From positions 1,551-65,550 of the forward strand of contig CAYQVF010000011.1 of the NCBI GenBank assembly GCA_964421045.1: DNA of 64,000 nucleotides, in the 5' to 3' direction. A model generated the notes under the pieces. That model made no database searches and had not been told where the DNA came from. It worked only from the letters and a program-made list of their open reading frames with translations. This stretch comes from an uncultured Chromatiaceae bacterium (lineage in GTDB: Bacteria; Pseudomonadota; Gammaproteobacteria; JAADHS01). The position numbers and the translations under genes were made by a program. This document shows positions 2,559-57,711 of this stretch, piece after piece. Each line of letters starts with the position of its first letter. Positions within the stretch are counted from its first letter, which is position 1.

Positions 2559-2602
2559 CTCTATACCGAATAACGACCTTTACATTTAAGGACCATTTGA
2601 TC

Positions 2603-3514
2603 ATGCATAAGCCAGTTTTCTATTCAAAAAAAACACGTTATTACGCCGTTATCGGGCTGATGGGTGCTGCCGCACTTATTTCCGGTTGCAGCACAACGCC
2701 AGCCCATCACAATGCGTCACTTGAGCGCGCAAAAGGGGTCATCGCTGAGATAAAGAGTGATCCTGCCACGTCTGAAAATGAAGCCGCAGCTCAATATCTC
2801 GCCGAAGCTGACCAGGCGTTGGCAAAGTCACAATATAAAAACGATTCTCTGAAATTTTTTCGACCCGGCGATGATCAAGGAGATGTCGACCACTGGGCTT
2901 ACATTGCAGAACAAAAAGCCTTGACTGCTCAAACGATGTTGCAAGGCGACGGAGAAGCAGCAGAGTTGGCTCAATTGAAAGCGGAACTTGATCAAGCCAA
3001 GCTCGCAAAGCAAGATCGCGATGCGGCTGAAGCACTACGGCTAGAAGAAGAAAGGCTGGCTCAGGAAAAGCTGCAACAACAGCATGACGCTGAACTGCAA
3101 GCCGCATTGCAGCGTGCTGAAGATGCGGGTGCGGACGTCGTGCGCGCGGAAGGTTTGACCACCGTCACTTTTAATAATGTGAGCTTTGCGTCCAACAAGG
3201 CGACTTTGCCTCAGGAGTTCGAGTCTGAATTGCTTAATATCGCCGAAGCGCTCACTACGACTGCCCCTGAGGCGACACTCGTGGTTAGAGGTCACAGTGA
3301 TGCCAGTGGAGCAGAGGCCTATAATCAGTTGTTATCGGAGAAGCGTGCAACGTCAGTAAAGACCTTTTTGATTACACAGGGGGTTTCGGCCAGCCGTGTG
3401 TCTAGCGAAGGATTAGGGGAAAGCACCCCGGTCGCGTCCAATGATTCTGCTGAGGGACGTGCCAAGAATCGTCGCGTGGAATTGATCATTACCGAAAAAG
3501 GCCATCAGCATTAA
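2603..3514 (+). CDS. OmpA-family peptidoglycan-binding lipoprotein with a DUF4398-like N-terminal region
   Basis: Lipobox ISGCST. The C-terminus has OmpA_C hallmarks (FASNKATL..., RGHSDASG, NQLLSEKRA, NRRVELII). I prefer the ATG at 2603 over the track TTG at 2597 because AAGGA lies 10 nt upstream. Confidence 0.85.
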   Translation: MHKPVFYSKKTRYYAVIGLMGAAALISGCSTTPAHHNASLERAKGVIAEIKSDPATSENEAAAQYLAEADQALAKSQYKNDSLKFFRPGDDQGDVDHWAYIAEQKALTAQTMLQGDGEAAELAQLKAELDQAKLAKQDRDAAEALRLEEERLAQEKLQQQHDAELQAALQRAEDAGADVVRAEGLTTVTFNNVSFASNKATLPQEFESELLNIAEALTTTAPEATLVVRGHSDASGAEAYNQLLSEKRATSVKTFLITQGVSASRVSSEGLGESTPVASNDSAEGRAKNRRVELIITEKGHQH

Positions 3515-4788: not shown

Positions 4789-7700
4789 GTGGCTTACAAT
4801 AAGCTGACTTCAGCGAATTCTGAATTTCAATCGTCACGGGTATATAATGGTAGAGGGTACGAGGACATCATATTGACATCAAAACAGCGAATGTTGTCTG
4901 GCTCGCGTAAGGTCTATCGCCCCTTGTTGCACAAGGCCTTGACTCGACTTCGCCTTTGTAAGCTTCTCGACGATGCCGCAGATCGACCTGCTACGGCGGT
5001 TCTTGCTCCCCCCGGTTATGGCAAAACAACCCTGGTTTCTAATTATTTGGAATCGAAACAAGTTTTGTCTGTTTGGTATTGCGTTGATGCAGGTGATACG
5101 GATTTAACCAGTTTTTTTGTCCATTTTACATATGCAATAAAGCAGGCCACAGCAAAACGCCGTAAAACGATACCTTTTTATCAGCCTGAAAATATTTTAA
5201 ATATAAAATCATTTTCTCGCCACTATTTTAAAGCGGTGTATCAACGACTGGATCAACCTTTTTATCTGATTTTTGATGATATTCACGAATGTTCTTCTCA
5301 GCAGTGGGTCGATGTTATTACGATAGCCATTGAAGAACTGCCCGTGAATGGACGCATTTTTATTATCGGTCGGCATGCCTTGCCTGGTGAGTTTTCCCGT
5401 TTGCATTTCAATCAGCTTATTTTTACGCTACGAGAAAAAGATCTTCACTTTAATGATCAAGAGCTGATTCAGCTTGCAACCATTCATGACATCAATACCT
5501 TATCTCAAGAGCAATGCAAAAAGCTTCAGGAGATGATGGTAGGGTGGGCCGCAGGATTGACTTTGTTACTGACACGAAGTGAAATTATTGACAATACTTC
5601 TCTGCACGCCTTTGAAACACAAGAAGAGCTGTTTAAGTATTTTACCAATGAGGTGCTACGGCACATCGATCATGAAACATTGGGGGTTTTATATTGCACC
5701 TGCTATTTACCTGATATTCCTATCGAGCATGCAGTGGAACTGACGCAGAACCCTCAGGTGGGCCATATTCTACAAAAACTCCACGATCAGCGTTATTTTA
5801 CTTATCGTACTACGGACACAGCGATAGTCTATCGCTATCACCCTTTGTTTCGAACACTATTGATCGCACAAAGCAAAAAAATGTTGAGTGAGAAAAATTT
5901 ACAATATGTATTTGATACTTCAGTCCAGTTGCTGGAAAAAGAGGGTGCCTTAGAAGCGGCGGTGACCTTGCTGGTTCTGATCGCGGACGGGACACGTCTT
6001 GCACAGTTTACAATGTTGCACGCAGAAGAATTAATAACCAGCAATCGTATGCAAATTTTAATGAAATGCTTGCAACACATTCCGGTAGAAACTATTTTGG
6101 CATCAGGCTGGTTATTGTATTGGCGAGGGATGTGTCTCGTTGCGATGCGCCCCCCCGTTGCACGGCAGGATTTCATTCTGGCTGAAAAGTTTTTTGCTTT
6201 GAAGCGAGAGGTTACGGGTCAGTGCTTGTCCTTGGTTGGTATTATAGATAGTTATACCTTGGAGCGAGATGAATTTTCAAGTTTGGATCCGTGGATCAAA
6301 AAAGCGGATCAATTGCGATTTCTATTTGATCAGCAAGCTACCTTGCCCGCCTTGAATGGGCTCACTCTTAGCATGTTTTCAGCATTATTGCATCGAGCAC
6401 CCAGCCATCAAAATTTTGATTTATGGCTTAAGCGTATTGATAATATACCGATGACTGAGTTGCCCCCCGGTTTGCAAATTAAAAGACAACTTTCACTCAT
6501 ATTGCATCGTCTCTGGCAAGGTGATTTTTATCGTGCGGAAATACATCACAGCATTTTGGAAAAACAACTTGGAAATGTTCCTGAACATGTGCCAAATATT
6601 TTGTGGCACATCATTCATTCCGGATTTTTGTGGATGACAACAGCCAAGGCACAAGAATCTTTAGCGATAGCGAAAGAAGGTCTGGAGCGTATTAAAGAAT
6701 ATAACTTGCCCCTGTTGAATGTTGGGCTGTTGACACACGCAACTGCAGCAGCTTTGATGGCGCACAATAATGATGAGGCGAAAAAGCTGTTAAAAACCGC
6801 AGCTCCGCATATTAATGAATCAGGTCAGACTCATCTGGCGTTATATCACAACCTTCATACGACCTATTCATTTAGAGTCAATGATAAAAAAACGGCATGC
6901 TATCATGCTGAAGAATTTTTGCAGGCGGCAACAGCATCCGGTTTACCCTTTTTTCAAAGTGCGGCGCACTTTTCTCAAGCACAGCTTTGTATGCTGAACA
7001 GCGATATTAAAAAAACCCGATACCATCTAAATATAGCGAAAGATATTGCGCTTCATTCTCGGAGTTACTTTCACCAGTTTCAAATTCAACTTCTGGCTGC
7101 TATTTTCGATTGGTCCCTTGGCCAGCAAGACTTGGCTCTGAGTGGTTTAAAAACCTCCTTGTTGCTCGCCAAGCAATACAACTTGCTGACTGGCTTGTGG
7201 ATTTGTGAGCCCGAATTATCACATATTTTGGCGCAAGCCTTGCGGCATGATATTGAATCGGCTACCGCGCAAAGAATCATTGGGCAACGTCGATTAATAC
7301 CCAAAGAACCATTCTATGATATTGACTGTTGGCCCTGGCCTATTCGTATCTATACATTGGGTCGCTTTGAAATCTATATTGACGGTAAACGATTAGAATC
7401 ACCCGGTCGCAATCGACCTAAAATTTATGCTTTGCTGAAAACCTTAATTGCTTTTGGCGGACGTCATGTTCGTGAAGAAATTATCTGTGAAGTGGTATGG
7501 CCTGATGCCGATGGGGATGCCGCGCATCAGTTGTTTGATACGACACTTTTTCGATTGCGAAAAATACTGGGTTTGCGCGATGCATTAATTAATCGTGAAG
7601 GCATGTTATCGCTCAATAAAAAATTATGTTGGCTCGATATATGGGCTTTAGATCTTGAGATCAATACATTAAAGCGGTCTATCAAAGATAAACGAGTTAC

Positions 7701-8094
7701 TGATGATCGTATAAGTAAATACGAAAATTTTTTGGACCGTGACTACTATGGAGATTTTTTATATGCTGAAGACCCTTTTCCTGTTGTCGTTCAACAGCGG
7801 CAAAAAATACGCTCCAAGTTATTATCTGCCTTATATCAGTTAGCAGATTATTGGCTGTGTAACAATGGCATTAAAGAAGCAGAAAAATGCCTGAAAAAGA
7901 TAACCAGCACATTTTTTCAAGAAGAAAAAGCTTATCAGATGTTGATGAAGTTGTTTATATCGCAAGATCGGTTTTCCGATGCGGCGAGTACTTATTATGC
8001 CTGTAAGCAGGTATTGATGATCGAGCTTGGCGTAACACCCTCTGCCGAGACTGAGCGCGAATATCGAAAACTCCCGAATTCCGGGTCTCGTTAA
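4789..8094 (+). CDS. Large STAND-type NTPase / TPR regulator with a C-terminal SARP (OmpR-type wHTH plus BTAD) module
   Basis: Walker A is PPGYGKTTLV and Walker B is YLIFDDIHE. A long helical middle region follows. The C-terminus has YTLGRFEIYIDGKRLE...LFRLRKILG (wHTH) and then a BTAD-like ...ELGVTPSAETEREYRKL. The start is GTG and is uncertain. Confidence 0.75.
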   Translation: MAYNKLTSANSEFQSSRVYNGRGYEDIILTSKQRMLSGSRKVYRPLLHKALTRLRLCKLLDDAADRPATAVLAPPGYGKTTLVSNYLESKQVLSVWYCVDAGDTDLTSFFVHFTYAIKQATAKRRKTIPFYQPENILNIKSFSRHYFKAVYQRLDQPFYLIFDDIHECSSQQWVDVITIAIEELPVNGRIFIIGRHALPGEFSRLHFNQLIFTLREKDLHFNDQELIQLATIHDINTLSQEQCKKLQEMMVGWAAGLTLLLTRSEIIDNTSLHAFETQEELFKYFTNEVLRHIDHETLGVLYCTCYLPDIPIEHAVELTQNPQVGHILQKLHDQRYFTYRTTDTAIVYRYHPLFRTLLIAQSKKMLSEKNLQYVFDTSVQLLEKEGALEAAVTLLVLIADGTRLAQFTMLHAEELITSNRMQILMKCLQHIPVETILASGWLLYWRGMCLVAMRPPVARQDFILAEKFFALKREVTGQCLSLVGIIDSYTLERDEFSSLDPWIKKADQLRFLFDQQATLPALNGLTLSMFSALLHRAPSHQNFDLWLKRIDNIPMTELPPGLQIKRQLSLILHRLWQGDFYRAEIHHSILEKQLGNVPEHVPNILWHIIHSGFLWMTTAKAQESLAIAKEGLERIKEYNLPLLNVGLLTHATAAALMAHNNDEAKKLLKTAAPHINESGQTHLALYHNLHTTYSFRVNDKKTACYHAEEFLQAATASGLPFFQSAAHFSQAQLCMLNSDIKKTRYHLNIAKDIALHSRSYFHQFQIQLLAAIFDWSLGQQDLALSGLKTSLLLAKQYNLLTGLWICEPELSHILAQALRHDIESATAQRIIGQRRLIPKEPFYDIDCWPWPIRIYTLGRFEIYIDGKRLESPGRNRPKIYALLKTLIAFGGRHVREEIICEVVWPDADGDAAHQLFDTTLFRLRKILGLRDALINREGMLSLNKKLCWLDIWALDLEINTLKRSIKDKRVTDDRISKYENFLDRDYYGDFLYAEDPFPVVVQQRQKIRSKLLSALYQLADYWLCNNGIKEAEKCLKKITSTFFQEEKAYQMLMKLFISQDRFSDAASTYYACKQVLMIELGVTPSAETEREYRKLPNSGSR

Positions 8095-18787: not shown

Positions 18788-19852
18788 ATGGCTCTTATAT
18801 CATTGCGCCAGCTTTTAGATCATGCAGCAGAAAACGATTACGGTGTTCCCGCTTTTAACGTGAATAATATGGAGCAAGTTCACGCTATCATGCAAGCGGC
18901 TGATGCGGTGAATAGCCCGGTTATTATGCAAGGTTCAGCCGGTGCGCGTAATTATGCGGGCGAACCTTTTCTACGCCATTTAATTTTAGCTGCCACGGAG
19001 CAATACCCTCATATCCCGGTTGTAATGCATCAAGATCACGGTTCAGAGCCGGCGATTTGTCTGCGTTCAATTCAGTCTGGTTTTTCTTCTGTCATGATGG
19101 ATGGTTCTTTAATGGCGGATATGAAGACCCCTTCTTCCTTTGAATACAATGTTGATGTGACTCGTGAAGTGGTGAAAATGGCTCATGCCGGTGGCGTTTC
19201 TGTGGAAGGTGAGCTGGGTTGCTTAGGGTCACTTGAAACGGGTGAAATGGGCGAAGAAGACGGTCACGGTGCGGTAGGGAAGCTGGATATGGATCAATTA
19301 TTAACTGACCCAGAAGAAGCCGCTGACTTTGTTAAAAAAACGGGTGTTGATGCTTTGGCGATTGCGATTGGTACCTCTCATGGTGCCTATAAATTTTCAT
19401 CCAAGCCGACGGGTAAAATTTTGAGACTGGATCGTGTGAAAGAAATTCATGAACGTATTCCCTCTGTTCACCTGGTTATGCATGGTTCTTCTTCTGTTCC
19501 CCAGGAATGGTTAGAAATTATCAATAACTATGGTGGTGATATGGGTCAAACATATGGTGTGCCCGTTTCAGAAATTGTTGATGGCATCAAAAATGGTGTG
19601 CGTAAAGTTAACATCGATACGGATCTACGTATGGCTTCTACGGGTGCCGTTCGCAAACATCTTAAAGAAAATGCGGCAAACTTCGATCCTCGTAAATTTC
19701 TTAAAGAAGCGACCAAAGCCATGTCAGAAATTTGTAAAGCTCGATATGAAGCATTTGGTGCAGCAGGACAAGCTTCGAAAATCAAAATAGTTTCTTTGGA
19801 TGACATGGTGGCTCGCTATGCCACTGGAGAACTGGATCCAAAAGTAAACTAA
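18788..19852 (+). CDS. fba: Class II fructose-1,6-bisphosphate aldolase (long FbaA/CbbA-like type)
   Basis: Contains [17 protein letters not shown] and [11 protein letters not shown]. 354 aa. Confidence 0.95.
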
Positions 19853-19866
19853 ACAACTGCCTAGCT

Positions 19867-19909
19867 AGCCCTGCTATCATCTTGTACAGTTAGATAGCAG
19901 GGCTTTTTG
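19867..19909. terminator. Bidirectional rho-independent terminator between the convergent fba and TPR genes
   Basis: AGCCCTGCTATC (19867-19878) pairs perfectly with GATAGCAGGGCT (19893-19904) around a 14-nt loop. A TTTTT run follows. Confidence 0.7.
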
Positions 19910-19979: not shown

Positions 19980-21917
19980 TCACATAAAGGACTTTTCGGG
20001 TTTTGCAGACGTTCGGTTTGCCTCGTTGTTCTTTGCTGTGAGGGTCAGATCATATATTTGTGCAATTGTGTATTGAGCCTGTTCTTTATAATGCGTAAGA
20101 CGTTGTATCTGTTTATTTAATTGTACTGTTGCTGCTGATTCTATTTGTGTTCTTTGAGCCGCCATAATTTTTCCCGACTCGGTTTCCATACGGTTAACTC
20201 GTTTTCTGAGTTCAGAGATTCGATTTTGATAGTGTTCGAATAGCTCAGGTTCTCGCTGTTGTGCTTTGTCTAATTTTGTTCGAAGGGAAGTCGCCTCCTC
20301 TATTTCAAATGCTAATGCTTGTAAATTTTTTTTGCTGTCATGCAATCGGGGTTTGTAATTATTTGCTATTTTCCAATAAAGAAGACCTTGCGTACGCCGC
20401 GCTCTTTCTTGGTAATTTTGCATTTTTTCTGGCGAAAGAAGGGCGCCGATTTTTGCAAGTCGAGAATTAACTTCAGTATTACGTTTAAGTGATTTTGCTT
20501 CCTCTGTTGTTTTAAGTGCCAAGAGGTCGTTCTTGTTTTCTATACGTTGTAGCTCCTTAGCTAGAGTGTTATAACGAATATTCATTTCAGCTATGCCGAG
20601 TGATTTGTATTTTTTCAAAGTGAGAGGTAGTTTATTGTTATAACCATGGCGACGGGTATTCAACATGATGGAAAAAGCTGAGATGCTATTTTTCCATGTC
20701 TTAAATTGTTGATTAATATATTCGAGATCGCGATAGCTTTTTAGTGCTTCTATAAATTCATGGCTAGATATTAATTTGGCGATGGCATGTCTTTTTAGTG
20801 CTTTAGGTAGATTATCAGGATTCCATTGCCATGGCGTTTCATTAAATTCTATTTTATCGAGTAGGATTTTATTCATGAGATGATTAGATTTAATGTCAAT
20901 AATAGTGTGTTGCAGTAGCGTTATATCAGAATCTATCGTGTTTATGGCTTTATTTAAATACATGAGCGCTTGAGCATACTTTTTTTCTGTAATGTAAGCT
21001 TTTGCAATAGCCAGGCTAGACTCGAGAACGGCTGCGCCATGAATATTTCTGTTGTTGAGTTCTTTCCAGGTAGTAATAGCTTTGGTAGGTTGTTTTTCAA
21101 TGAACCAGGCTTGACCTAAACCAAAAAGTGCTTGGTTGGAATAAGGGCCGTGAAGATGAACCTGTTCAAAATAACGACGCGCAGATGCAGTTTGCTGGTG
21201 ATCTAGAGCGGTATATCCCAACGCAATGTTCGCCCTGTCACGTAACGCGGCAGCCTCTGGATGTAAATATTTTTTGTTCGTTGTGATCGCTTCGATTACT
21301 TCTATGCCTTGTTTTGTTTGCTGAAGTTTGATGAGTGCAACCCCAAGATTAAAGCGGGCATAGTGAATCCAAATCGTTTCTTTTTCTTTGATATTACGCA
21401 ATAGCTCAACCGCTTTTTCATATTTATTTTGAGCGAGAAAGATATTAGCATTTAATATAATTTTTCTTGCCTCAAAGGTGGAAGGCAAGGTTTGTTTGAT
21501 GCGGTTCAATGCCGCATGTGCATTGTTGTATTCACCGCGACGATAAAATATTTCAGATAAATAGAGCCAGGCCTTATCTCTGAGGGCGGGGTGGCCATTG
21601 TTGTCTGCGACTATAATAAATAATTTTTTTGCATCGTCATAGAGCCCATATGCTAGATAAAGTGCTCCCAAAAGCAAGTTCCCGTCATATTTTTCAGGAT
21701 GATACCGCTCCGTTTTTTCGAAAAATGATGATTTGGATATTGCGGATAAATATTTTTTTTGTAAAAAATAATAAAGTACGTTGCTGTGATGGATGTCGCT
21801 GGTGCGAGAGGACATTGTTGAGCCATCATCACTCCGAACTGAAAGAGGTATGAACAATGATATTATCAAAAATAAAATCAAGTTTATTTTTTGACGTTTT
21901 ATTCTGTATTTTACCAT
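19980..21917 (-). CDS. Secreted TPR-repeat protein with a long C-terminal coiled-coil region
   Basis: 645 aa with an N-terminal signal/anchor (INLILFLIISLFIPLSVRS). There are about 300 aa of TPR-like A/Y/L-patterned repeats, followed by a heptad-rich K/E/Q/R region. Its start overlaps the upstream gene stop (ATGGTAA). Confidence 0.7.
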   Translation of the reverse strand: MVKYRIKRQKINLILFLIISLFIPLSVRSDDGSTMSSRTSDIHHSNVLYYFLQKKYLSAISKSSFFEKTERYHPEKYDGNLLLGALYLAYGLYDDAKKLFIIVADNNGHPALRDKAWLYLSEIFYRRGEYNNAHAALNRIKQTLPSTFEARKIILNANIFLAQNKYEKAVELLRNIKEKETIWIHYARFNLGVALIKLQQTKQGIEVIEAITTNKKYLHPEAAALRDRANIALGYTALDHQQTASARRYFEQVHLHGPYSNQALFGLGQAWFIEKQPTKAITTWKELNNRNIHGAAVLESSLAIAKAYITEKKYAQALMYLNKAINTIDSDITLLQHTIIDIKSNHLMNKILLDKIEFNETPWQWNPDNLPKALKRHAIAKLISSHEFIEALKSYRDLEYINQQFKTWKNSISAFSIMLNTRRHGYNNKLPLTLKKYKSLGIAEMNIRYNTLAKELQRIENKNDLLALKTTEEAKSLKRNTEVNSRLAKIGALLSPEKMQNYQERARRTQGLLYWKIANNYKPRLHDSKKNLQALAFEIEEATSLRTKLDKAQQREPELFEHYQNRISELRKRVNRMETESGKIMAAQRTQIESAATVQLNKQIQRLTHYKEQAQYTIAQIYDLTLTAKNNEANRTSAKPEKSFM

Positions 21918-22453
21918 TCGTTAATAACAAACTCAGGTTGCTGTTTAAGGGCGTTACCTTGAATTGTTAGTTCAATGTATTTAATATCATCCGTTTTCGT
22001 TATTTCGAATGTGGCACCGCGTCGATACTCTCGGCCATGGGGACCTTTTCCGGTAAAAAATGCGATCAACTCGTTTTTTCCTGAACGAATATTGCCGCTA
22101 AATAATTGTTGAACGCCTCCTCGATGTAGTGCATCAAGTTCTCTGTCGGTATAAAGATACTGTGCTACTGTTTTATTATTCATTTTAAGTTCGACAGAAT
22201 CTAATGAAAATAAGTTATCTGTTTTGAGTGAAACAAAAACAATGATTTGAGTGTTTGCTGGAAATAGCAGTTCTTCTTCAAGAATAAAAAGATCTCGATT
22301 GAGTTTCAATACTTCTTTTTTTAGGTTTTGAATTTGTTCGTTAATTATTTTATTTTCAAGTTCTGTAGAATAGCTTAATGGAGGAAAAAAAAAGCATATT
22401 AACAAAGAAAAAACGAAAAGAGGATAGAGTAAATTGTTAAAAAATTTGAGCAT
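21911..22453 (-). CDS. Small secreted/anchored hypothetical protein (short coiled coil plus beta domain)
   Basis: I prefer the start at 22453 (MLKFFNNLLYPLFVFSLLICFFFPPLSYS signal-like) over the track start at 22528. No family recognised. Confidence 0.55.
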   Translation of the reverse strand: MLKFFNNLLYPLFVFSLLICFFFPPLSYSTELENKIINEQIQNLKKEVLKLNRDLFILEEELLFPANTQIIVFVSLKTDNLFSLDSVELKMNNKTVAQYLYTDRELDALHRGGVQQLFSGNIRSGKNELIAFFTGKGPHGREYRRGATFEITKTDDIKYIELTIQGNALKQQPEFVINEW

Positions 22454-22630
22454 TCCTGAGCTATCCCGGGTTGGAAATATTGTTAATGATATCGGTTTAA
22501 AAATTTGAATTATTAGGGGGAAGGTCACATTTTTAATGATCCACAGTAACAGGGCTAAGACTTAAGATAGATTTATGGTGGTAAAGAAAGGGTAAATCTC
22601 TTGCCGTCATTGTGTGTTTGGATCTCAGGT

Positions 22631-23743
22631 TTATTTGAGTAATTCCTCTAGCTCTTCCTCCTGAGGGGGTTCAGTTTCCATGCTTTGGTGTGTAGTTTCC
22701 TCAGTTTGTAACGACTCAATATTATTGAGTTCATCTAAAATATCATCGGCTTTATCGTTCGATGTTTGTTTTTTGACCTTGGGTGAACTTTTTTCTATAA
22801 GTACACTTTTGTTTTCATCTGCGACTTCTTCGATTAAGGCGTCAATATCAACTTCTTCTGGTTTTTTTTCAGTGGCTTCGATTTCCGCGTCTAATATAGC
22901 GTCGATATCGTCTTCGATGGCAAGACTGGTTGGTTGGGATTCGTTCTGTTTTGTGGTGATATTCTCTTCTTCGGGCATTGTTGGTTGATCAACAGGCCGA
23001 TCTTTCTGAGCCTGAATATGATTAGGGTCAACGTCTTCTGTGGCTTTGGGTGAAATTTCTTGTTCCTCTAATAGAGGTTCATTATTTTTATCTATCTCTT
23101 CTTTTTTAAGTGAATTTTCATTTTTTTCATCGACATCTTTTACAGTTTCTGATGTTGTTAAATCAGCTATGCTCTCTTCAGAGGTATTACTTTGGGTTTC
23201 CTGTTTATTTAGTGTTGGGCTCTCAATGGTGGTTTCGTCGATGGTGATGGGGGTGCGGGCTACCACCTTAATAAGCTGGTTTTGTTCATTTCTTATTTCT
23301 TGTACTGTCGTGTGTAGCTCTGATAAATTAAATACAATTTTTTCCAGGCCATCCCGAGTTTTTATTTTTTTATTTAAACTTGCTTTGCTTATACTGTGAG
23401 TAAGTGATTCAACATGTTTATCCAGATCAGACAGTTGGTTTAAGTCAATTTTTACCAGGGCATGAACGATATATTGATAGAATATAGTTTCGTTTTTCAT
23501 GATTTCACTGCTGATCATGAATAACTGCTCTTCATCTGGAAAGCCTTGTTCTTTTAACAAGCGGATGAGTTCTGCCTTCCTCTGTGATCCATTTTCTTTT
23601 AATTTATAGACAATATCGATGAGCGTTTTTTTACGCTTCAAATAGTGTTTTATTTGAAAAAATGACAATATGGCTGTTAATAATATAAAAACGGCTAGTG
23701 CTTCTAATAACAGGTAATATAGGCCGGAGTGTATATTAATCAT
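22631..23743 (-). CDS. Single-pass membrane protein with a long, highly acidic, low-complexity C-terminal region
   Basis: The N-terminal TM (LYYLLLEALAVFILLTAILSFF) is followed by KHYLKRKK, so the positive-inside rule places the C-terminus in the cytoplasm. The C-terminal half is E/D/T/K-rich with DIDAILD / DIDALIEE / DDILDEL motifs. The start overlaps the upstream stop (ATGATTAA). Confidence 0.6.
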   Translation of the reverse strand: MINIHSGLYYLLLEALAVFILLTAILSFFQIKHYLKRKKTLIDIVYKLKENGSQRKAELIRLLKEQGFPDEEQLFMISSEIMKNETIFYQYIVHALVKIDLNQLSDLDKHVESLTHSISKASLNKKIKTRDGLEKIVFNLSELHTTVQEIRNEQNQLIKVVARTPITIDETTIESPTLNKQETQSNTSEESIADLTTSETVKDVDEKNENSLKKEEIDKNNEPLLEEQEISPKATEDVDPNHIQAQKDRPVDQPTMPEEENITTKQNESQPTSLAIEDDIDAILDAEIEATEKKPEEVDIDALIEEVADENKSVLIEKSSPKVKKQTSNDKADDILDELNNIESLQTEETTHQSMETEPPQEEELEELLK

Positions 23744-25556
23744 AGGATAACATCCCTTTTAGCTTGTAAATCCATTTTTTGTTATAGCGACGCCAAAAAT
23801 GAAATGTAATTAGAATAAATGTGAGTAGTAAAAAGTTGATTAATACGAGTTGTACTGCTGGCGTTGTCCAAACTGAAGAGCTTGACTTTATTTCTTCGTC
23901 TCTACTAGAGCCCTTATTATTTTTTATTAGGGTATCCGGTGATGTTGTCAGATTGTCATGATCGATTAAGTCATGGTGTTTGTGCGTGACTTTTTTTCTG
24001 ATTTGAGTTGGCTGTTGTCCTACTATCATAGGGTCTAGCCAAATACTCAGAGATCTTCCTCTATAAGTGATGGTTGCAATATTTAATTCAACAATATAAG
24101 GAGAAAGTTCCGGAGTATTAGCAAGAGCAAGCTGCCATTCAAAGTTATTTTTGCGATTTAATCGAATTTCTTTTTGTTCTCCATTGGCGGTAGTAATGGA
24201 GGCCGTGATGGTTGTCGTTTCAGCATGAATTAATTTGGCATAGGGTACAACAGTAATAGTATGTTTAGAGGCATCATTAGAGAGTATATTAAAAAATTCA
24301 AAGGGCTTTGCAACGACGTTGAGCGAAGTGTTAAGCTGGCGTTGAAATAAATGACCATCAACGTCAATTTTTAAATAATATTGACCGGCTAATAACGCAT
24401 CGCTAAGCTGTACGCTATAAATACCATCGCCAGCCAGTCTGTCTCCATTGCGACCGTTGTCCATGGGAAACCATGTTTGTTCTGCATCTTGCGTACTTAA
24501 CATAGTTACTTTGATAACAACATGGTCTAGTATTTTTGGTGCGGTGATATGTCTATTTTCTTGAGTTAATCTTATAGATAAAATTTGTGCAGAATGAGGA
24601 AAAAGCTGTAATGGTACGGGGTTTATTTCAATTTGAAGGGCAGACGTGATAACCGCTCTATCCATCGGGTGAGATTGAGCATTTATTTGCCATGTTCCTT
24701 TTTCGGGTTTATCGATATGAATGATTTTGAAGTTTTTTTCTTGCAGCCAATGGACATTGTCTGGATAGTTGTATTGATTAAATTTTTCCTCTTGTGGTGG
24801 AATAAATTGAATGGGCAAGTTTTTATCTGTACCAAATAATAAGAAGCTAATTTTGTCTGTATTATTGTCTATACGAACCAGGTTGTCATGAAAAGGCAGA
24901 TAGTTTAGTTGTAGTGAAAAAGAGATGAGACTTAAAAACTCTTTTTCTAGTTTTTCTATATTGACAATACTCTGATAGCGGCCATTAGTCGCTGTTGTTA
25001 GAGCGTGGAGCTGGAAGTTTTTTCCCGAAGAAGTGGAGCCTAAATGTATAGTGGAAATACTTATATTATTTTCTTGAAATTTTTTGATTAGCGGCGAAAT
25101 GCTATTGTATTCCTCATTTGTTAAAATCGGTACAGGTGAGTGTGCGTCAAATATAATAAAAATATGGCGAACTGTTTTCTGTTGCTGTGCTTGCTTGCTG
25201 ATGGATGAAAAAAGATCGAATAAACTTTTTTTGTCTGGAGCAGGAAATAGGTTTTGTTTAGAGTCGTTAATTTTTTCTGAAAAACGGCTGAGTTCAACTG
25301 AAGTTAGGGCGTGGTTTTTAGTTAAATTCCAAAAATTAATTTTTTTGTGTTGTTGGAGTATCGAGGCCAAGCTGGCGATTGAAGATTTTGTACTGTGTAG
25401 TTGAGTGTTGGTGATGATATGGAGTTCATCCAGGGAGGCAGGTCGCGTATCACTTTTTTGCGATGTTGCCTTTACGTTAGGCGCAGCGATACATAGCAGC
25501 GCGCTGAGCAGTGCCATGACTACACCCCATTGTATCGTTTTCAAACCTTTTTCCAC
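23736..25556 (-). CDS. Secreted vWA-like domain protein with Ig-like middle region and a C-terminal TM anchor
   Basis: Signal peptide present (ALLSALLCIAAPNVKA). The vWA-like block is HIFIIFDAHS...ISISTIHLGS...LTTATNGRYQSI. It also has a GDRLAGDGIYS motif, and a C-terminal TM (VQLVLINFLLLTFILITFHF) followed by WRRYNKKW. Confidence 0.65.
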   Translation of the reverse strand: MEKGLKTIQWGVVMALLSALLCIAAPNVKATSQKSDTRPASLDELHIITNTQLHSTKSSIASLASILQQHKKINFWNLTKNHALTSVELSRFSEKINDSKQNLFPAPDKKSLFDLFSSISKQAQQQKTVRHIFIIFDAHSPVPILTNEEYNSISPLIKKFQENNISISTIHLGSTSSGKNFQLHALTTATNGRYQSIVNIEKLEKEFLSLISFSLQLNYLPFHDNLVRIDNNTDKISFLLFGTDKNLPIQFIPPQEEKFNQYNYPDNVHWLQEKNFKIIHIDKPEKGTWQINAQSHPMDRAVITSALQIEINPVPLQLFPHSAQILSIRLTQENRHITAPKILDHVVIKVTMLSTQDAEQTWFPMDNGRNGDRLAGDGIYSVQLSDALLAGQYYLKIDVDGHLFQRQLNTSLNVVAKPFEFFNILSNDASKHTITVVPYAKLIHAETTTITASITTANGEQKEIRLNRKNNFEWQLALANTPELSPYIVELNIATITYRGRSLSIWLDPMIVGQQPTQIRKKVTHKHHDLIDHDNLTTSPDTLIKNNKGSSRDEEIKSSSSVWTTPAVQLVLINFLLLTFILITFHFWRRYNKKWIYKLKGMLSYD

Positions 25557-25719
25557 AATTAATCCGATTAATACTCTAGCCCTTTAATTTTTTCGGCATA
25601 GCGGGTGATTTCTTTAGTTTAGTGCGTTGTTGTGAGCAGGGCGCGGATTTTTTATGGTGGCATGGATGCAGAAAAAGTTAAAGTTATTCAGGGGGGGTAA
25701 GCAGGGAAGTGATGTGACA

Positions 25720-26787
25720 TTATTCCTGGCGTGCTGGTTCATTGATTAATGCGACCTGGGTAATGATATAAAGTGTTACTCGCCGGTTTCGAGCTTGTCC
25801 TGAGCGTGTCCAGTTTTCATCAACGGGGGTGGTTTTTCCTCTGCTGGAGATTTCTAGTAATGCGATGGGTACGCCCCGGTTGAGTAAATAATCCTTTACC
25901 GTTTGTGCGCGGCGATCAGTAAGTTGATAGCTGTTTTTGATGCTTGCAGTATGGTCGGCATGAGCTTCAATGATGACTTTTGTTGTCTGTTTCGAATTCA
26001 TAATATATTTTGCTGCTTCATCAAGCGTTGTCTTGGCGCGCCTTGTCAGCTGATCTTGGTTGTGTGGAAAATAAATGCTTTCTAATGGAATAAATTCAAA
26101 GCGGTTTTTTTCTTGATTTTTGTATTGGGTAATTGATGCATGACCCGGAGTCCGTTGGTTTTTGTCCATGTGGTATGCATAATTTGAGGAGGGGGCAGGT
26201 GAGCTTGGTTTTGTTTTTATTTTGACGAATGTTTTTTTTGTTTTTTGAGTAACATGTTTTTTATGTTTTATTTTTTCTTCATCGTCAGGCAATACAGAAC
26301 CAAAATGTTTTTTTCTCGTATTTTTAAGATGAGCATAAACTCCTTTTTCAATAAAATATTGTTTTATTGCAAACGCTTGTTTGCGATAACGTGTTTGTAA
26401 TGTTTTATCTTTTGAGTCGGCTCCAACAATATCGATGTAGAGGCGGATGACAGAGTTGCGGTTGGCGAGATAAGCAATGGTATCTTCTAATGCTTGGGTT
26501 GCGTTGGCATCAAGTAATGCTTGAGTTTTTGTGGTGACGGGGATACAGCCGAGATTAAGGGTTCCGTATTGATCCTGATGTTTAGTTTTTGCCATCAGTT
26601 TAATATAAGGTTGTTGTTCCGTTTGTTTGGTGCAGCCCAGAGCGGTGTGGGTCATAGGCGGAGGCATTACCAGTTTTGCTTCGTCGGTTTTTTTGTGCGC
26701 GCCAGGATCAGCAGCGACCCATGCTGGGCTGCTTATTATAAAGAGGCCTATGAAAAGTAAATATGTTTTTCGCTTGATTATTTGCAT
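25720..26787 (-). CDS. OmpA-like peptidoglycan-binding protein (canonical C-terminal OmpA_C, degenerate second copy upstream)
   Basis: Signal peptide present. The C-terminus reads IYFPHNQDQL...IEAHADHT...LTDRRAQTVKDYL...NRRVTLYI. An internal K-rich linker is present. Confidence 0.75.
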   Translation of the reverse strand: MQIIKRKTYLLFIGLFIISSPAWVAADPGAHKKTDEAKLVMPPPMTHTALGCTKQTEQQPYIKLMAKTKHQDQYGTLNLGCIPVTTKTQALLDANATQALEDTIAYLANRNSVIRLYIDIVGADSKDKTLQTRYRKQAFAIKQYFIEKGVYAHLKNTRKKHFGSVLPDDEEKIKHKKHVTQKTKKTFVKIKTKPSSPAPSSNYAYHMDKNQRTPGHASITQYKNQEKNRFEFIPLESIYFPHNQDQLTRRAKTTLDEAAKYIMNSKQTTKVIIEAHADHTASIKNSYQLTDRRAQTVKDYLLNRGVPIALLEISSRGKTTPVDENWTRSGQARNRRVTLYIITQVALINEPARQE

Positions 26788-26925: not shown

Positions 26926-27969
26926 ATGAGTAATTTCAGTTTAGTAAAGGCTGTTGATTGGTGTGATGAGAAGCTGAGAATGTTGGATCAGCGTGTTTTG
27001 CCGGAAACGGTCGCCTATATAGAATACAGTGATGCCGCTGCCGTTGCTGAGGGTATCCGGCAAATGGTTGTTCGCGGTGCGCCTGCAATTGGTATAGCGG
27101 CTGCTTATGGGGTCGTGCTTGCGGCGCGTGCAGCTTACGCTCAGGATGCTGAAAACTGGCGTTCCAGGATTGAGCCGGATCTAAAATGCTTGGCTCAATC
27201 TCGGCCTACTGCGGTCAATCTATTTTGGGCTTTAAAAACCATGAAGGCGCGTTTTACCTCGATTACGGGTCACCCTGAATCAGAATTGTTATCTTTGGCA
27301 AAAAAAATTCATGCAGATGATATTGCGGCCAATCAGAAAATGGGTGATTTAGGAGCGGATTTGATTGGGTTGGATTCAGGTGTGCTCACTCATTGCAATG
27401 CCGGTGCGCTTGCTACCGGAGGCTATGGAACGGCGCTTGGCGTGATTCGCTCAGCCTTTGCTCAAGGTAAAATCAATCATGTTTATGCTGATGAAACAAG
27501 GCCTTGGATGCAAGGAGCGAGGCTGACGGCCTGGGAAATGGTAGAGGATCATATTCCGGTCACTTTGTTGGCAGAAGGTGCAGCAGCTTATTTGATGAAG
27601 CTCAAACGAATAAAATGGATCGTTGTCGGGGCTGATCGTGTTGCCGCGAATGGTGATGTTGCAAATAAAATAGGGACTTATAGTTTGGCTGTGTTGGCAC
27701 GCCATCACGGTGTTAAATTCATGGTCGTAGCCCCTGCTTCGACTTTGGATATGAATGCGATGAATGGAGAACAAATTCCAATTGAGGAGCGATCTGCTGA
27801 AGAATTGCATTTTAGTTATGGGCGTCGTATTGCTGCTGCGGGCGCGCAAGCTTGGAATCCGGTCTTTGATGTCACGCCTGCGGGCTTGATTGATGTCCTA
27901 GTGACGGAGCGAGGGCGAGTCGAGCAACCATCCATAGAAAAAATAAGTGTTTTGATGGGCGAAATATAA
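26926..27969 (+). CDS. mtnA: S-methyl-5-thioribose-1-phosphate isomerase
   Basis: 347 aa. Contains [39 protein letters not shown] and [10 protein letters not shown]. Confidence 0.9.
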
Positions 27970-43827: not shown

Positions 43828-45300
43828 ATGGATTTGCAGCCCGTTATATTGTCAGGAGGGTCGGGAACCCGTCTTTGGCCACTTTCACGCGAACACTACC
43901 CCAAACAACTGTTGCCGCTCCATGGGGATGACACCATGTTGCAAGACACGGTTCTGCGGCTAGATGGGTTTTCGTTATCTGGAGACGTTGTGGCTGATGG
44001 CGCAATCAACCCCCCTTTGGTCATTTGCAATGAAGAACACCGGTTTTTAGTTGCAGAGCAAATTCGTCAACTCGGTAGACATTATGAAAAAATTTTGCTT
44101 GAACCGGTTGGCCGTAATACGGCTCCAGCGCTGACATTAGCCGCGCTGTCTATTGTCGAAGATCACGGCGATAGCATGATGCTGGTGATGCCCGCTGATC
44201 ATGTTATACAAAATAAAGCGTCATTTCACAATGAAGTACAACAAGGCTTTGATGTTGCATCTCAAGGGGCTTTAGTTACTTTTGGTATTGTGCCCACAGC
44301 CCCAGAAACAGGCTATGGATACATCAAAAAAGGTGAGCTATACACTATACAAGGTGCAAAAAATGCCTTTTCCTTGGCGGCTTTTGTTGAAAAACCTGAT
44401 TTAGAACGCGCAACAATGTATTTAGAATCAGGTGAGTATTTATGGAATAGCGGTATGTTTATGATGCAGGCAACAACCTGGTTGACGGCCATTGAACAGT
44501 TCAACCCCGGTATGGCTCAGGCCTGTCGTATGGCCTATGAAAATGGAGAAGTAGATAGCGATTTTTACCGAGTGGATGCAGAAGCTTTTCAGAATTGTCC
44601 CAATGACTCCATTGATTACGCGGTGATGGAGCATGTTACAGAATCTACGACTATCGATGCTTTATCTGCTGTGGTTATTCCCTTGGATGCCGGGTGGTCC
44701 GATGTGGGTACCTGGCCCGCTTTATGGGAAATTGGTAAGCAAGACGAACAAGGTAATGTTGTTAAAGGGGATGTTTATGCCTTTAATACAAAAAACACCT
44801 TAGCGTTATCAGAGTCTCGTTTGGTTGCGATGGTTGGGTTAGAAGATGCCATTGTTATAGAAACAGCGGATGCCGTTTTAGTTGCTCACAAAGACCATGC
44901 ACAAGATATTAAACTTGTCGTCAATCGGCTTAAAGAAGAAGGGCGAACACAGCATCAAATGCATCAACAAGTTTCCCGTCCCTGGGGAACCTACGAAGGC
45001 ATTGATCGCGGCGATCGTTTTCAGGTCAAGCGCATCACGGTTAATCCCGGTGCCGCATTATCATTACAAATGCATTATCACCGTGCCGAACACTGGATTG
45101 TAGTCAGAGGCACAGCCAAAGTCACCAAAGGCGATGAAGAAATTTTACTCACTGAAAATCAATCGACCTATATTCCGTTAGGGGTGACACATCGACTAGA
45201 AAACCCGGGCAAAGTGCCTTTAGAGTTAATCGAAGTTCAGTCAGGGAGTTATTTGGGTGAAGATGACATTGTGCGATTTGAAGATGTTTATGGCCGGTGA
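43828..45300 (+). CDS. manC: Mannose-1-phosphate guanylyltransferase / mannose-6-phosphate isomerase
   Basis: Contains ILSGGSGTRLWPLSR, a C-terminal cupin region (RPWGTYE, VKRITVNPGAALSLQMHYHRAEHWIVV) and EDDIVRFEDVYGR. Confidence 0.92.
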   Translation: MDLQPVILSGGSGTRLWPLSREHYPKQLLPLHGDDTMLQDTVLRLDGFSLSGDVVADGAINPPLVICNEEHRFLVAEQIRQLGRHYEKILLEPVGRNTAPALTLAALSIVEDHGDSMMLVMPADHVIQNKASFHNEVQQGFDVASQGALVTFGIVPTAPETGYGYIKKGELYTIQGAKNAFSLAAFVEKPDLERATMYLESGEYLWNSGMFMMQATTWLTAIEQFNPGMAQACRMAYENGEVDSDFYRVDAEAFQNCPNDSIDYAVMEHVTESTTIDALSAVVIPLDAGWSDVGTWPALWEIGKQDEQGNVVKGDVYAFNTKNTLALSESRLVAMVGLEDAIVIETADAVLVAHKDHAQDIKLVVNRLKEEGRTQHQMHQQVSRPWGTYEGIDRGDRFQVKRITVNPGAALSLQMHYHRAEHWIVVRGTAKVTKGDEEILLTENQSTYIPLGVTHRLENPGKVPLELIEVQSGSYLGEDDIVRFEDVYGR

Positions 45301-45362
45301 GTTTTACCTCCGTTTGGCCGGCTCAATTTTAGCCATTACAAATTATAGATAGGACGTCTTCA

Positions 45363-46481
45363 TTGGATAAAAAAACTAGCACACAACCCATTCCGGTATA
45401 TTTCGCCCCGACAATGAATGAAAGCGACGAAATCAGTCTAGTTGATTTATGGTGCGTGATTGTTAGGCGAAAAATAATTATTTTAGTTAGTTTTCTTGTG
45501 TCTGTGTTACTTATGTTGGTTTATCTGTTTTTTGCGGAACCTGTCTATAAAGCGAATACCACTCTGTTACCGCCACAGCAGGAACAAATTCAAGCTTTAT
45601 TGATAAACCTACAAGGAATAGAAGGTGTTGATGATGATCGATACACGGTGGAGAGTGTGTACACGACTTTTCTTAATAACTTAAATTCTCAAGGCATGCG
45701 TCGTGAATTTTTCGACAGTCACGGTTTGATCAAACACTATGTCGATGGTGCTTCAACGGAAAAAATTAATGCCGACCGTGTTTTCGAGGAGCTGTTTAAT
45801 GAACGACTTACGGTACAAGCTGATCTGGAAAATACGTTGTTTGTGACGGTGAGTTTCAGTGACAGCAATCCGGAATTGGCGGCAGAATGGTTAAATCAGA
45901 TAGTTGATACAGCCAACAAACGTACCGTTTTCCAATTGTCTGATGATATCAATGCGGCGATTCAGTCAAAAATCACTCAAATTCGTACGCGATTGAATAA
46001 TAAGTTGAGATTTTCTGAACAAAAAAGACATGACAAAGTTGTCGCCTTAAAAGAAGCGTTGCTCATTGCTGAAGCGCTGGATATTAAGGACACGGGTACA
46101 TTCACCAGCATGATGAAACAAACGACATCAGAACTGGTTATTAATACGAGCCAGATCCCTTTGTATATGAGGGGGATAAAAGCGTTGGGAGAAGAAATAT
46201 CAGTGCTTGAAAAAAGAAAATCGGATGCGCCTTTTAATGAAGTATTTCGCGATCTTCAAGAAAAACTCGCTTATATGGAAGCGATTTCGGTAAAACCTGA
46301 GTTCTTGTCATCTGTTACAATCGATGTCACTGCGCATATTCCTTATCAAATAGAAAAGCCCCGAAAACGTCTTTTGCTGATCATCGCAGCGATGCTGGGT
46401 TTTATGGTTGGTATATTTTTGGTGTTTGTCGCTGAATTTAGGTCAAAAATGAGTAATGAGCATAAAAAAAATGTGGCGTAG
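45363..46481 (+). CDS. wzz: Wzz-type polysaccharide chain-length determinant
   Basis: Has an N-terminal DEISLVDLW motif plus TM, a long periplasmic coiled region, and a C-terminal PRKRLLLIIAAMLGFMVGIFLVF TM. The start is TTG at 45363, or possibly the ATG at 45414. Confidence 0.75.
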   Translation: MDKKTSTQPIPVYFAPTMNESDEISLVDLWCVIVRRKIIILVSFLVSVLLMLVYLFFAEPVYKANTTLLPPQQEQIQALLINLQGIEGVDDDRYTVESVYTTFLNNLNSQGMRREFFDSHGLIKHYVDGASTEKINADRVFEELFNERLTVQADLENTLFVTVSFSDSNPELAAEWLNQIVDTANKRTVFQLSDDINAAIQSKITQIRTRLNNKLRFSEQKRHDKVVALKEALLIAEALDIKDTGTFTSMMKQTTSELVINTSQIPLYMRGIKALGEEISVLEKRKSDAPFNEVFRDLQEKLAYMEAISVKPEFLSSVTIDVTAHIPYQIEKPRKRLLLIIAAMLGFMVGIFLVFVAEFRSKMSNEHKKNVA

Positions 46482-46512
46482 TCGCTATAAAGTGCTAAAT
46501 TGATATTGATAG

Positions 46513-46925
46513 TGATCCCCAGATTTTGGACAGTAGTATAAGATAGAGCCACTGTCAAAAAAAGGGATAATATGAAGCGCAAAAAATTTAGTAAAAAATA
46601 CAAAGGCCAAGGTCACACTGGAGGCGTTAAAAGGAAATAAAACAGTCAATGAACTGGCTGCGGAATACGAGGTTCATAGCACGCAGATCAACACCTGGAA
46701 AAAAGAACTCCAACAAGGTGCGAGTGATCTATTCAGTCGATCAAAGGGTCAAGACGTCAGTGAACTTGAGGAAGACTGGCTAAAAAAAAGACCGGACATC
46801 TCGATTAAGTCTGGAGGAAAAATGCGCAATGATAGACACAAATTATCCAGAGTTAAGTGTCGTTCGGCAGTGCGAATTACTGAGCCTGGCTCGCCCACGA
46901 GCTTATCAACAACGGACTAATTAGA
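46513..46925 (+). mobile_element. Decayed, truncated IS3-family insertion sequence remnant
   Basis: An IRL-like TGATCCCCAGATTTTGGACAG lies at 46513. The orfA-like reading MKRKKFSKK / KAKVTLEALKGNKTVNELAAEYEVHSTQINTWKKELQQGASDLF is split by a frameshift. An orfB-start-like LSLEEKCAMIDTNYPELSVVRQCELLSLARPRAYQQRT sits in another frame, and the rest of the transposase is absent. Confidence 0.8.
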
Positions 46926-47152
46926 TTGCAACAATAAGATTTATATCTTAATTTTTTGAATTACTGTCTTGATTATGGGGTCTACTTTAGTCAGCAGCGT
47001 AGGCTGCTGATCAACTGGCATACCGGTTTACCAAGTTGTAAGACAGCATAAAAATGAAATTTTATCCTAAACGAAACAGACATCACCGTTGTGAATGTCG
47101 ATGCACCTCTTTTAACTGATGACATTGAAAGCACTGCGCAGGGAGTTTTTAT

Positions 47153-48592: not shown

Positions 48593-48638
48593 CCAGGTAT
48601 TTTTTTGTTTTTGACTAATGTAATTATGAGGCGAGTCA

Positions 48639-49514: not shown

Positions 49515-49515
49515 G

Positions 49516-57133: not shown

Positions 57134-57147
57134 CAACGAAGTCGAAA

Positions 57148-57711
57148 ATGCCAAAACGATTTTTTGATATTATATTATCTGCTACTTTGTTAGTGGTCTT
57201 TACACTGCCCATTGTGTTGATCGTAGTGGCGATCCGCCTGACTTCGGCGGGTTCGGTAATTTATTACTCAGACCGGGTTGGTAGGAATAACCAAATATTC
57301 CACATGCCAAAATTCCGCACCATGCGAGTCGAGACCCCCGCGATAGCTACTCATCTTATGGAAAACCCGGAGGTGTATCTCACTCCAATTGGTGCATTTT
57401 TACGTAAATCGAGTCTCGATGAATTACCTCAACTCTGGAGTATTTTGATTGGTGATATGAGTGTGGTGGGCCCCCGACCTGCCTTGTTTAATCAGGATGA
57501 TTTGATAGCGCTGCGTTCTGCAGCGGGTGTTCAGAAGATCACTCCGGGCTTGACCGGCTGGGCACAAATTAATGGTCGAGATGAGCTTCCCATCCTTGAA
57601 AAAGTGAAGCTTGATGTAGAGTACATGCAACAGCAATCGTTTTATTTTGATCTTAAAATCATTTTTTTAACGTTTGCTCGTGTTATTTATCGCCAGGGTG
57701 TATCTCATTGA
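57148..57711 (+). CDS. Small monotopic phosphoglycosyl transferase (PglC/WbaP-C-terminal type initiating sugar transferase)
   Basis: 187 aa. Contains KRFFDIILSA, RVGRNNQIFHMPKFRTM, DELPQLWSILIGDMSVVGPRP and GLTGWAQING. Confidence 0.9.
   Translation: MPKRFFDIILSATLLVVFTLPIVLIVVAIRLTSAGSVIYYSDRVGRNNQIFHMPKFRTMRVETPAIATHLMENPEVYLTPIGAFLRKSSLDELPQLWSILIGDMSVVGPRPALFNQDDLIALRSAAGVQKITPGLTGWAQINGRDELPILEKVKLDVEYMQQQSFYFDLKIIFLTFARVIYRQGVSH

Follow-up and report, generated by a model that had tools for sequence, protein, structure and literature searches.

Closest described systems and the locus under study

The Agl/Glt 'core complex' has been described in Gammaproteobacteria, Geobacter and Fibrobacter and proposed as the ancestor of both the Myxococcus gliding machine and the Nfs spore-coat machine, its own function being unknown (Luciano et al. 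2011, PMC3169522); as of the 2020 literature, this function was still unknown outside the Myxococcales. In Table S3 of the former study (PMC3169522) the genes are ordered as a gltC-homologue (MXAN_2541; 550-692 aa), gltD (933-1016 aa), gltE (162-263 aa), a skipped locus tag, the TolQ/TolR-like genes aglR, aglQ and aglS, and gltG (321-334 aa). In Myxococcus, CglB, a vWA adhesin and outer-membrane lipoprotein with a functional metal ion-dependent adhesion site (MIDAS), is held at the outer membrane by a complex docked on GltC. Here we consider a locus of five genes, P1 to P5, which combines a gene pair resembling the head of such core-complex operons with a second pair from a large unnamed membrane-protein family. 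It lies in a 64,000-nucleotide stretch of DNA from an uncultured Chromatiaceae bacterium (assembly GCA_964421045.1, contig CAYQVF010000011.1, positions 1,551 to 65,550), hereafter the window. An earlier account of this DNA, made from its letters alone (the sequence-only reading), had taken the five genes for one self-contained envelope system.

All five open reading frames (ORFs) are on the minus strand, between fba (18788-19852, plus strand) and mtnA (26926-27969, plus strand), and their coordinates bear out the co-directional arrangement given in the sequence-only reading. They encode, in order of transcription, an OmpA-family protein (P1), a vWA-like/Ig-like membrane protein (P2), an acidic single-pass protein (P3), a small secreted protein (P4) and a secreted TPR protein (P5). 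Comparison with relatives shows that this locus is assembled from three separately inherited pieces, namely a lineage-specific OmpA gene, the P2-P3 pair and the P4-P5 pair, and that the window lineage lost a kinase and response-regulator block between the two pairs and gained the upstream OmpA gene.

A composite and reduced locus

Among the relatives compared, all five genes are found together only in a vent metagenome-assembled genome (MAG; GCA_013151745, L004), whose fba and gyrA share 98-99% identity with those of the window, as against 85-90% for the five cluster proteins. This MAG was also the sole return of a profile scan of genome contigs with the P2 alignment, in which the patterns used were over-specific. 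The neighborhood check thus argues against a single self-contained five-gene system, given that co-occurrence is confined to one near-identical genome.

In P2 relatives of 53% down to 23% identity, the layout is different and larger. The core order in these loci is P2-P3, a 537-aa response regulator with receiver and TPR domains (REC-TPR), a soluble histidine kinase of about 230 aa, and P4-P5, the homology of the genes among the loci having been confirmed by phmmer/hmmsearch. The content of the region between the pairs varies: L001 and L003 carry the REC-TPR regulator, the kinase and an opposite-strand gene for a 202-aa putative envelope protein; L006 and L095 add to these a Big_13-type protein; and L007, which has a different genomic neighborhood, carries the regulator and kinase alone. 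In L009 and L094 the two-component genes follow P3 in a P2-P3-REC-TPR-kinase arrangement that does not include P4-P5, while L010 and L011 carry P2-P3 only. In L001, L003 and L095 the cluster is bordered by a phosphoglucomutase gene, which precedes P2, and by fba-pyk-pgk at the opposite end; the L006 contig stops at fba. The carriers of this layout are a group of Gammaproteobacteria, mostly from vents and sediments.

The window has no homologue of the regulator or the kinase anywhere along its length. The site at which relatives carry the REC-TPR gene, the kinase gene and, mostly, one or two opposite-strand genes corresponds in the window to a gap of 177 bp between P3 and P4 (22454-22630, minus strand). 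The window locus is therefore a reduced form, from which the middle block was deleted exactly at this gap. The sequence-only reading had described the cluster as having no enzymatic component; while this is true of the locus itself, as Pfam/NCBIfam scans of the five genes recovered no ATPase, no MoxR/DUF58 and no transporter, the presence of regulator and kinase in sister lineages makes it a secondary loss rather than an original lack.

The junctions between the genes tell the same story. Overlaps are confined to the junctions within each pair: the stop of P2 and the start of P3 share 8 nt (23736-23743, minus strand), which read ATGATTAA, and the stop of P4 and the start of P5 share ATGGTAA (21911-21917, minus strand), both as originally reported. 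By contrast, P1 and P2 are parted by 163 bp (25557-25719, minus strand), marking the border of the lineage-specific OmpA gene, and P3 and P4 by the above-mentioned 177 bp. The comparative split into OmpA, P2-P3 and P4-P5 falls exactly at these two non-overlapping junctions, and gaps of this size mean that a single transcript is not implied.

Certain features of the relatives' loci deserve note in their own right. The 202-aa opposite-strand secreted protein between the kinase and P4 (L001:10859-11467, minus strand) has no family match, and some relatives carry a Big_13/OmpL47-like surface protein of about 663 aa (L095:12333-14996, minus strand; L006 and L094 are also listed); both are absent from the window. 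The REC-TPR/kinase pair (L001:8549-10854; L013:10001-12315) stands alone in L013. The regulator has 1,669 relatives at E<=1e-20, with 45-70% identity among the best 120, and ranges across Gammaproteobacteria and Nitrospirota/Thermodesulfovibrionales, magnetotactic lineages included. Its kinase partner of about 230 aa is sensor-less. No curated family fits the pair, and a literature search on the REC-TPR protein found no paper.

The P2-P3 pair

P2 (23736-25556, minus strand; its start may instead be the TTG at 25544) is a predicted type I membrane protein with a signal peptide, a C-terminal transmembrane (TM) segment at residues 565-588 and a short basic cytoplasmic tail. Its ectodomain would comprise a vWA-like domain (residues ~45-216) and a beta-rich region related to TIGR03503 and choice-of-anchor X (residues ~220-512). 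Residues 220-591 cover nearly the whole TIGR03503 profile (E=1.6e-37), with 129.4 bits as against a curated cut-off of 305.6, whereas the 37-residue choice-of-anchor X domain model is matched above its cut-off (32.5 vs 25 bits). Six P2 relatives likewise score between 80 and 179 bits with TIGR03503, all under the cut-off, and on this basis P2 appears to belong to a broader family around this uncharacterized model. A literature search found no paper mentioning TIGR03503.

The vWA-like domain is sub-threshold in Pfam (VWA_3, 23.7 bits vs a cut-off of 27), and the fold is predicted from family homology and alignment. The consensus of the P2 family displays a canonical MIDAS, with the motifs DVSGSMKxNDP ... 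LLTDG; in the window protein the DxSxS position reads T-N-T-Q-L (ITNTQ), so that the metal site is gone. Of the earlier description of P2 as a tail-anchored vWA/Ig protein, the signal peptide, C-terminal TM segment and beta-rich region hold up, while the vWA assignment falls short of the Pfam threshold and lacks a MIDAS. Further, the MIDAS is lost in every response-regulator-linked P2, the window's included, and its loss therefore predates the deletion in the window lineage.

The family is large: used as the query of an exhaustive HMMER search, the P2 alignment recovers 1,101 representative clusters at E<=1e-3 and 698 at E<=1e-10, mostly of about 600 aa. A profile search with a 59-sequence alignment returned only five proteins and no names, and searches of PDB sequences with P2, P4 and P5 gave noise or designed TPR proteins only.

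P3 (22631-23743, minus strand) has an N-terminal TM segment, by hydropathy, followed by the stretch KHYLKRKK, which places its C-terminus in the cytoplasm. Next comes a conserved, helical cytoplasmic region of some 125 aa, which gives way to a variable, acidic, disordered tail, of which residues 171-370 contain 29% D+E with an isoelectric point of 4.07; the proposal of an N-terminal anchor with an acidic cytoplasmic tail is hence well borne out. The tail keeps two conserved short motifs, DIDALIEEVADEN and a C-terminal ELEELLK. P3 has no NCBIfam match at E<=1, and its Pfam matches are at the level of noise.

A P3 homologue follows P2 in every P2 locus examined, mostly with the same 8-nt overlap, which is kept in L001, L003, L006, L007, L009, L010, L094 and L095. 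The two genes form a deep, widespread and translationally coupled pair. Of the two TM helices, that of P3 has an invariant Glu14 (window 23702) and that of P2 a near-invariant Asn574 (window 23835-23837), which suggests a polar contact between the two within the membrane.

The P4-P5 pair and its usual operon

P4 (21911-22453, minus strand; 180 aa) most likely begins at the ATG at 22453, where all its homologues start, and not at the GTG at 22528. The call of a small secreted protein in the sequence-only reading is upheld by the signal peptide predicted from the ATG start. Beyond the signal peptide, P4 has one conserved helix (LKKEVLKLNRDLFILEEELLFP) and a beta-rich domain, and no match in Pfam, NCBIfam or PDB. 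P5 (19980-21917, minus strand; 645 aa) has a signal peptide, TPRs detected with Pfam/NCBIfam models and a helix-prone C-terminal half that is poor in Pro and Gly. It had been viewed as a periplasmic TPR protein with a coiled coil of about 300 aa; the former stands, while the heptad signal (a crude score) is strong only over residues ~511-570 and leaves a coil of that length unsupported.

A metagenome scan seeded with P4 recovered more than 270 relatives/loci at about 50% identity or higher, of which the best 80 were tabulated. P5 directly follows P4 in 76 of these 80, the contigs of the other four stopping within about 220 bp of P4. Where at least 1.5 kb downstream is available, P5 is followed by a GltD-like TPR protein of about 930 aa in 38 of 39 loci, the exception being the L001 contig; and where at least 7 kb downstream of P4-P5 is available, an ExbB gene and a TonB-like gene are present in 21 of 23. 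All but one of these 21 motor loci also have a short TPR protein, a protein of about 100 aa and both ExbD genes, the short TPR protein alone being undetected in L077. The TonB-like protein matches the AgmX/PglI C-terminal domain (E=3e-21) and GltG (E=2e-16), and the short TPR protein has a weak match to GltE. In a reference operon (L028), the products run in the order P5 (628 aa), 945, 202, 103, 219, 166, 171 and 316 aa.

P5 homologues measure about 620-660 aa, as compared with 550-692 aa for the listed homologues of MXAN_2541. By its position and size, P5 therefore appears to occupy the GltC position of the Agl/Glt core-complex operon, and P4 is a conserved gene one step upstream of that position which is not listed in PMC3169522. 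The verdict that the set could not be placed in any described system accordingly needs to be divided: P3, P4 and P5 have no curated family and P2 has only choice-of-anchor X, but homologues of P4-P5 head operons of the Agl/Glt type. In the window the pair has no such company, as phmmer searches with the L028 operon as queries found no GltD-like, ExbB, ExbD or TonB-like gene in the 64 kb, nor in the L001-L013 loci with their 10-kb flanks.

Just 2 of the 33 loci whose upstream sequence extends to at least 4 kb have any vWA gene, these being the L001 contig and L047. The L047 gene (2786-4336) was considered as a possible P2 homologue and rejected, as it encodes an unrelated vWA-TM protein. It lies directly upstream of P4 in a motor-linked locus and has a vWA domain with a MIDAS, a TM segment and a C-terminus that appears FHA-like by eye, recalling the FHA domain of Myxococcus GltG. 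In a simple neighbor-joining tree, built without bootstrap, the P4 proteins linked to vWA genes group in a single clade, separate from those of motor operons, which suggests a single event of detachment or co-option.

A further conserved block is found just upstream of many Agl/Glt-type core operons, in either orientation, in L028 (2744-9569) and about 20 more metagenomic loci. It encodes a 432-aa protein, a Laminin_G_3 protein of about 918 aa, a 539-aa protein and ApbE, with a DUF3570 or thioredoxin-like gene added in some loci; three of its four proteins are recorded as having no family match. Alignment by hhalign of P2 and P3 with the products of these upstream genes (up432, up918, up539) uncovered no relation.

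The OmpA gene

P1 (25720-26787, minus strand; 355 aa) is a predicted secreted, peptidoglycan-binding protein of the OmpA family. Residues 239-335 match OmpA_C (Pfam PF00691) with 68 bits as against a cut-off of 27.2, which assigns the protein to this family as had been proposed; a degenerate OmpA_C-like stretch can be made out by eye at residues ~85-165, and every NCBIfam match falls below its equivalog cut-off. Among the relatives compared, the gene is present in the window and L004 only. At a distance of 22 kb from the cluster, the window encodes a second OmpA_C-family protein (2597-3514, plus strand; 305 aa; Pfam OmpA, 78 bits), which is distant kin of P1 (phmmer E=6e-11).

Selection on the five genes

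Comparison of the window with L004 gives ratios of nonsynonymous to synonymous substitution rates (dN/dS) of 0.47 for P1, 0.22 for P2, 0.33 for P3, 0.15 for P4 and 0.20 for P5, as against 0.015-0.08 for the flanking housekeeping genes. Evolution is 5-15 times faster in the cluster proteins than in those of these flanks (dN of 0.05-0.07 vs 0.004-0.02); all five genes are thus fast-evolving, yet under purifying selection. Between L001 and L003, which keep the kinase and regulator, the dN/dS values are 0.18 for P2, 0.23 for P3, 0.07 for P4 and 0.20 for P5. The constraint on P2-P5 is hence about equal with or without an adjacent kinase and regulator.

A proposed function and its alternatives

The above observations lead us to prefer, at somewhat less than even odds (a probability of roughly 0.45), the view that the five genes, which descend in cut-down form from an envelope cluster specific to this clade, work as a scaffold or relay from periplasm to cytoplasm and not as a stand-alone five-protein machine. 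P2 would form a long periplasmic stalk, made of a vWA-like head without a metal site and of Ig-like domains. Its TM helix, with Asn574, might pair with the TM helix of P3, with the invariant Glu14, to give a heterodimer that joins the stalk to a docking tail; such pairing is suggested by these two residues and by the conserved features of P3. The conserved cytoplasmic domain and acidic tail of P3 could then present the tail motifs as docking sites for cytoplasmic partners, and in the relatives the response regulator would read these motifs with its TPR domain. P4-P5 could serve as a GltC-type adaptor in the periplasm, close to the outer membrane, with the P2 ectodomain as a possible contact, and P1 might tie the assembly to peptidoglycan. 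In the window genome, what is left would be either a scaffold or relay whose partners are encoded at other loci, or a purely structural remnant.

Several points weigh against this proposal. The two pairs are separate transcription units in the relatives, and opposite-strand genes intervene in five of the six that have both, so that the adjacency of P2-P3 and P4-P5 could be historical and not functional. P4-P5 is missing from L009 and L094, and most loci with P4-P5 lack P2-P3. The pairing of P2 with P3 and the adaptor contacts are predictions from sequence, and the assignment of P5 to GltC draws on position and size. Structure models offer little help: AlphaFold2 gave a low-confidence model of P2 from a five-sequence alignment (mean predicted local distance difference test score, pLDDT, of 39), albeit with a fitting secondary-structure pattern, and a model of P4 from its single sequence (pLDDT 56), both of them too poor to use. 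Additionally, the MIDAS-bearing branch of the P2 family is sampled by two loci only, and the absence of the REC-TPR/kinase and Tol-like motor genes covers the 64-kb window only.

Some of these same points underlie the best-surviving alternative, under which the two pairs are functionally unrelated neighbors: P4-P5 would serve an Agl/Glt-type motor elsewhere in the genome, P2-P3 would act independently, and their adjacency would have been left by the deletion. The strong tie of P4-P5 to the motor operon (38 of 39 and 21 of 23 loci, as noted above), the occurrence of P2-P3 alone in L010 and L011 and without P4-P5 in L009 and L094, and the opposite-strand genes that part the pairs in most relatives are all as expected under such an arrangement, and we hold it to be a real possibility. 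However, the pairs stay adjacent from 85% down to 23% P2 identity, even in the different neighborhood of L007; the vWA-linked P4 proteins form a distinct clade; and the motor genes are missing from the window as well as from the 10-kb flanks of every relative.

The model of the sequence-only reading, in which a single operon encodes all parts of a dedicated trans-envelope complex acting as scaffold, landmark or adhesion device, appears improbable. The predicted topologies of the five proteins do together span the cytoplasm, inner membrane and periplasm, as that reading had it, and extend to peptidoglycan; further, the genes are co-directional, are under purifying selection and recur as a set in L004. 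Yet that recurrence is limited to one very close MAG, the OmpA gene is missing from all other relatives, the two pairs differ in history and in typical partners, and the 163- and 177-bp gaps sit precisely at the borders of the modules. It is similarly improbable that the locus is a decaying, functionless remnant of the loss of the kinase/regulator block: the rapid evolution of its proteins relative to the housekeeping flanks, the lost MIDAS and the dN/dS of P1 might be cited in its favor, but no ORF is broken in either of two lineages, dN/dS stays below 1 for each of the five genes and is for P2-P5 about as in relatives that keep kinase and regulator, the loss of the MIDAS is older than the deletion, and the tail motifs of P3 are kept.

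Flanks, base composition and other features of the window

A strong hairpin is found at 19867-19909, 70 bp past the stop of P5 (12-bp stem, -21.5 kcal/mol, z=-4.1). It had been taken for a bidirectional terminator closing the unit. Its U-tract is on the plus strand alone, with none found on the minus strand, and the hairpin is consequently the intrinsic terminator of fba on the plus strand; a bidirectional role is not supported.

The cluster is AT-rich, as was claimed from spot checks, with 37.5% G+C as against 45.3% in the remainder of the window, and each of its genes lies below pyk, fba, mtnA and gyrA in both G+C and G+C at third codon positions (GC3). Orthologous clusters at the same site in L001, L003 and L004 share the low G+C (38-39% vs 44-46%), and it is therefore old; recent horizontal transfer was rejected as its cause. 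An origin as a defense island or from a plasmid was likewise rejected: among PADLOC defense-system models, the only matches in the locus were of the P1 OmpA_C domain, as a generic MotB-like protein (ZorB), and blastn against plasmids gave no match.

Elsewhere in the window, positions 43828-57711 hold an apparent polysaccharide/O-antigen stretch (a ManC-type GDP-mannose enzyme, a Wzz chain-length determinant and a methyltransferase), with low-G+C patches of 0.395-0.398 at 46-47 kb and 54-55 kb. An ORF of 1,101 aa with a GTG start (4789-8094, plus strand) has a C-terminal BTAD (bacterial transcriptional activator) domain as its sole family match, its first ~980 residues having none.

Implications

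One might go further and propose that P2-P3, REC-TPR, the minimal kinase and P4-P5, a cluster of which the window has a reduced form, make up an undescribed envelope-to-cytoplasm signaling system, in which a GltC-type adaptor pair would be re-used off its Tol-like motor together with a vWA stalk devoid of a metal site, and the acidic tail of P3 would recruit the TPR response regulator via its conserved C-terminal motifs. The window lineage would, in that case, be an example of the periplasmic and membrane half persisting where kinase and regulator are no longer adjacent. This is a speculative and, on present showing, rather unlikely extension.

The function of the Agl/Glt core complex has been an open question since 2011, and the gene at the GltC position and its unlisted upstream partner P4 are evidently separable from the motor. 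The P4-P5 sub-module could thereby provide a handle for dissecting the periplasmic, outer-membrane-proximal end of the Agl/Glt machines. Moreover, two large unnamed families come to light, P2-P3 with about 1,100 representative clusters and REC-TPR plus minimal kinase with more than 1,600 proteins, neither of which has a curated whole-protein model or a paper that could be found in literature searches. In practical terms, neither annotation nor study should treat the five genes as a single operon-level system.

Comparison with known systems

The combination of vWA and TPR proteins in the envelope recalls the Bat (BatA-E) systems. However, MoxR ATPase, DUF58 and BatD are all absent from the locus, which is flanked by fba and mtnA, in agreement with the prior judgment that it is not a Bat operon. 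BatA and BatB are characterized by N-terminal TM segments, whereas P2 combines a signal peptide with an anchor at its C-terminus, and the best score of the BatB model on a P2 relative is 21 bits as against a cut-off of 350. FimV/HubP proteins resemble P3 in crossing the membrane once and in having a long acidic region in the cytoplasm. They carry a periplasmic LysM domain, for which the short N-terminus of P3 leaves no room, and the lack of family matches to P3, including to the NCBIfam models of the FimV N- and C-terminal motifs (TIGR03505 and TIGR03504), agrees with its earlier exclusion from a FimV/HubP module.

In the TonB2/Ttp cluster, TtpB (DUF3450), TtpC/ExbB, ExbD and TonB2 adjoin the TPR protein TtpD. 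None of DUF3450, MotA_ExbB, ExbD and TonB_C is found among the five proteins, and ExbB, ExbD and TonB-like queries were blank across the window. The statement that the locus is not a Ton/Tol module is correct insofar as TonB2/Ttp genes are concerned; it misses that the cluster, through P4-P5, derives in part from a Tol/Ton-like module, that of Agl/Glt.

With TIGR03503 and choice-of-anchor X, P2 shares the alignment of residues 220-591 and, for the latter, a score above the cut-off; it differs from TIGR03503 itself in falling far below the cut-off and in its extra N-terminal vWA-like domain. The association of a vWA-type protein with a GltC-type TPR protein is reminiscent of CglB and GltC, a resemblance drawn from the literature, while P2 differs from CglB in its inner-membrane anchor and lack of a MIDAS, with no homology demonstrated between the two.

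The closest likeness is to the Agl/Glt core complex. The gltD, gltE, aglRQS and gltG genes are absent from the 64-kb window, such that the defining clustering is not seen here, and the gene list of PMC3169522 does not include P4. Nonetheless, P4-P5 homologues head operons of matching order and sizes, as in L028, and P5 is a secreted TPR protein with the size and position of GltC. Taken as a whole, the larger cluster of the relatives is undescribed and is built from partly known modules.

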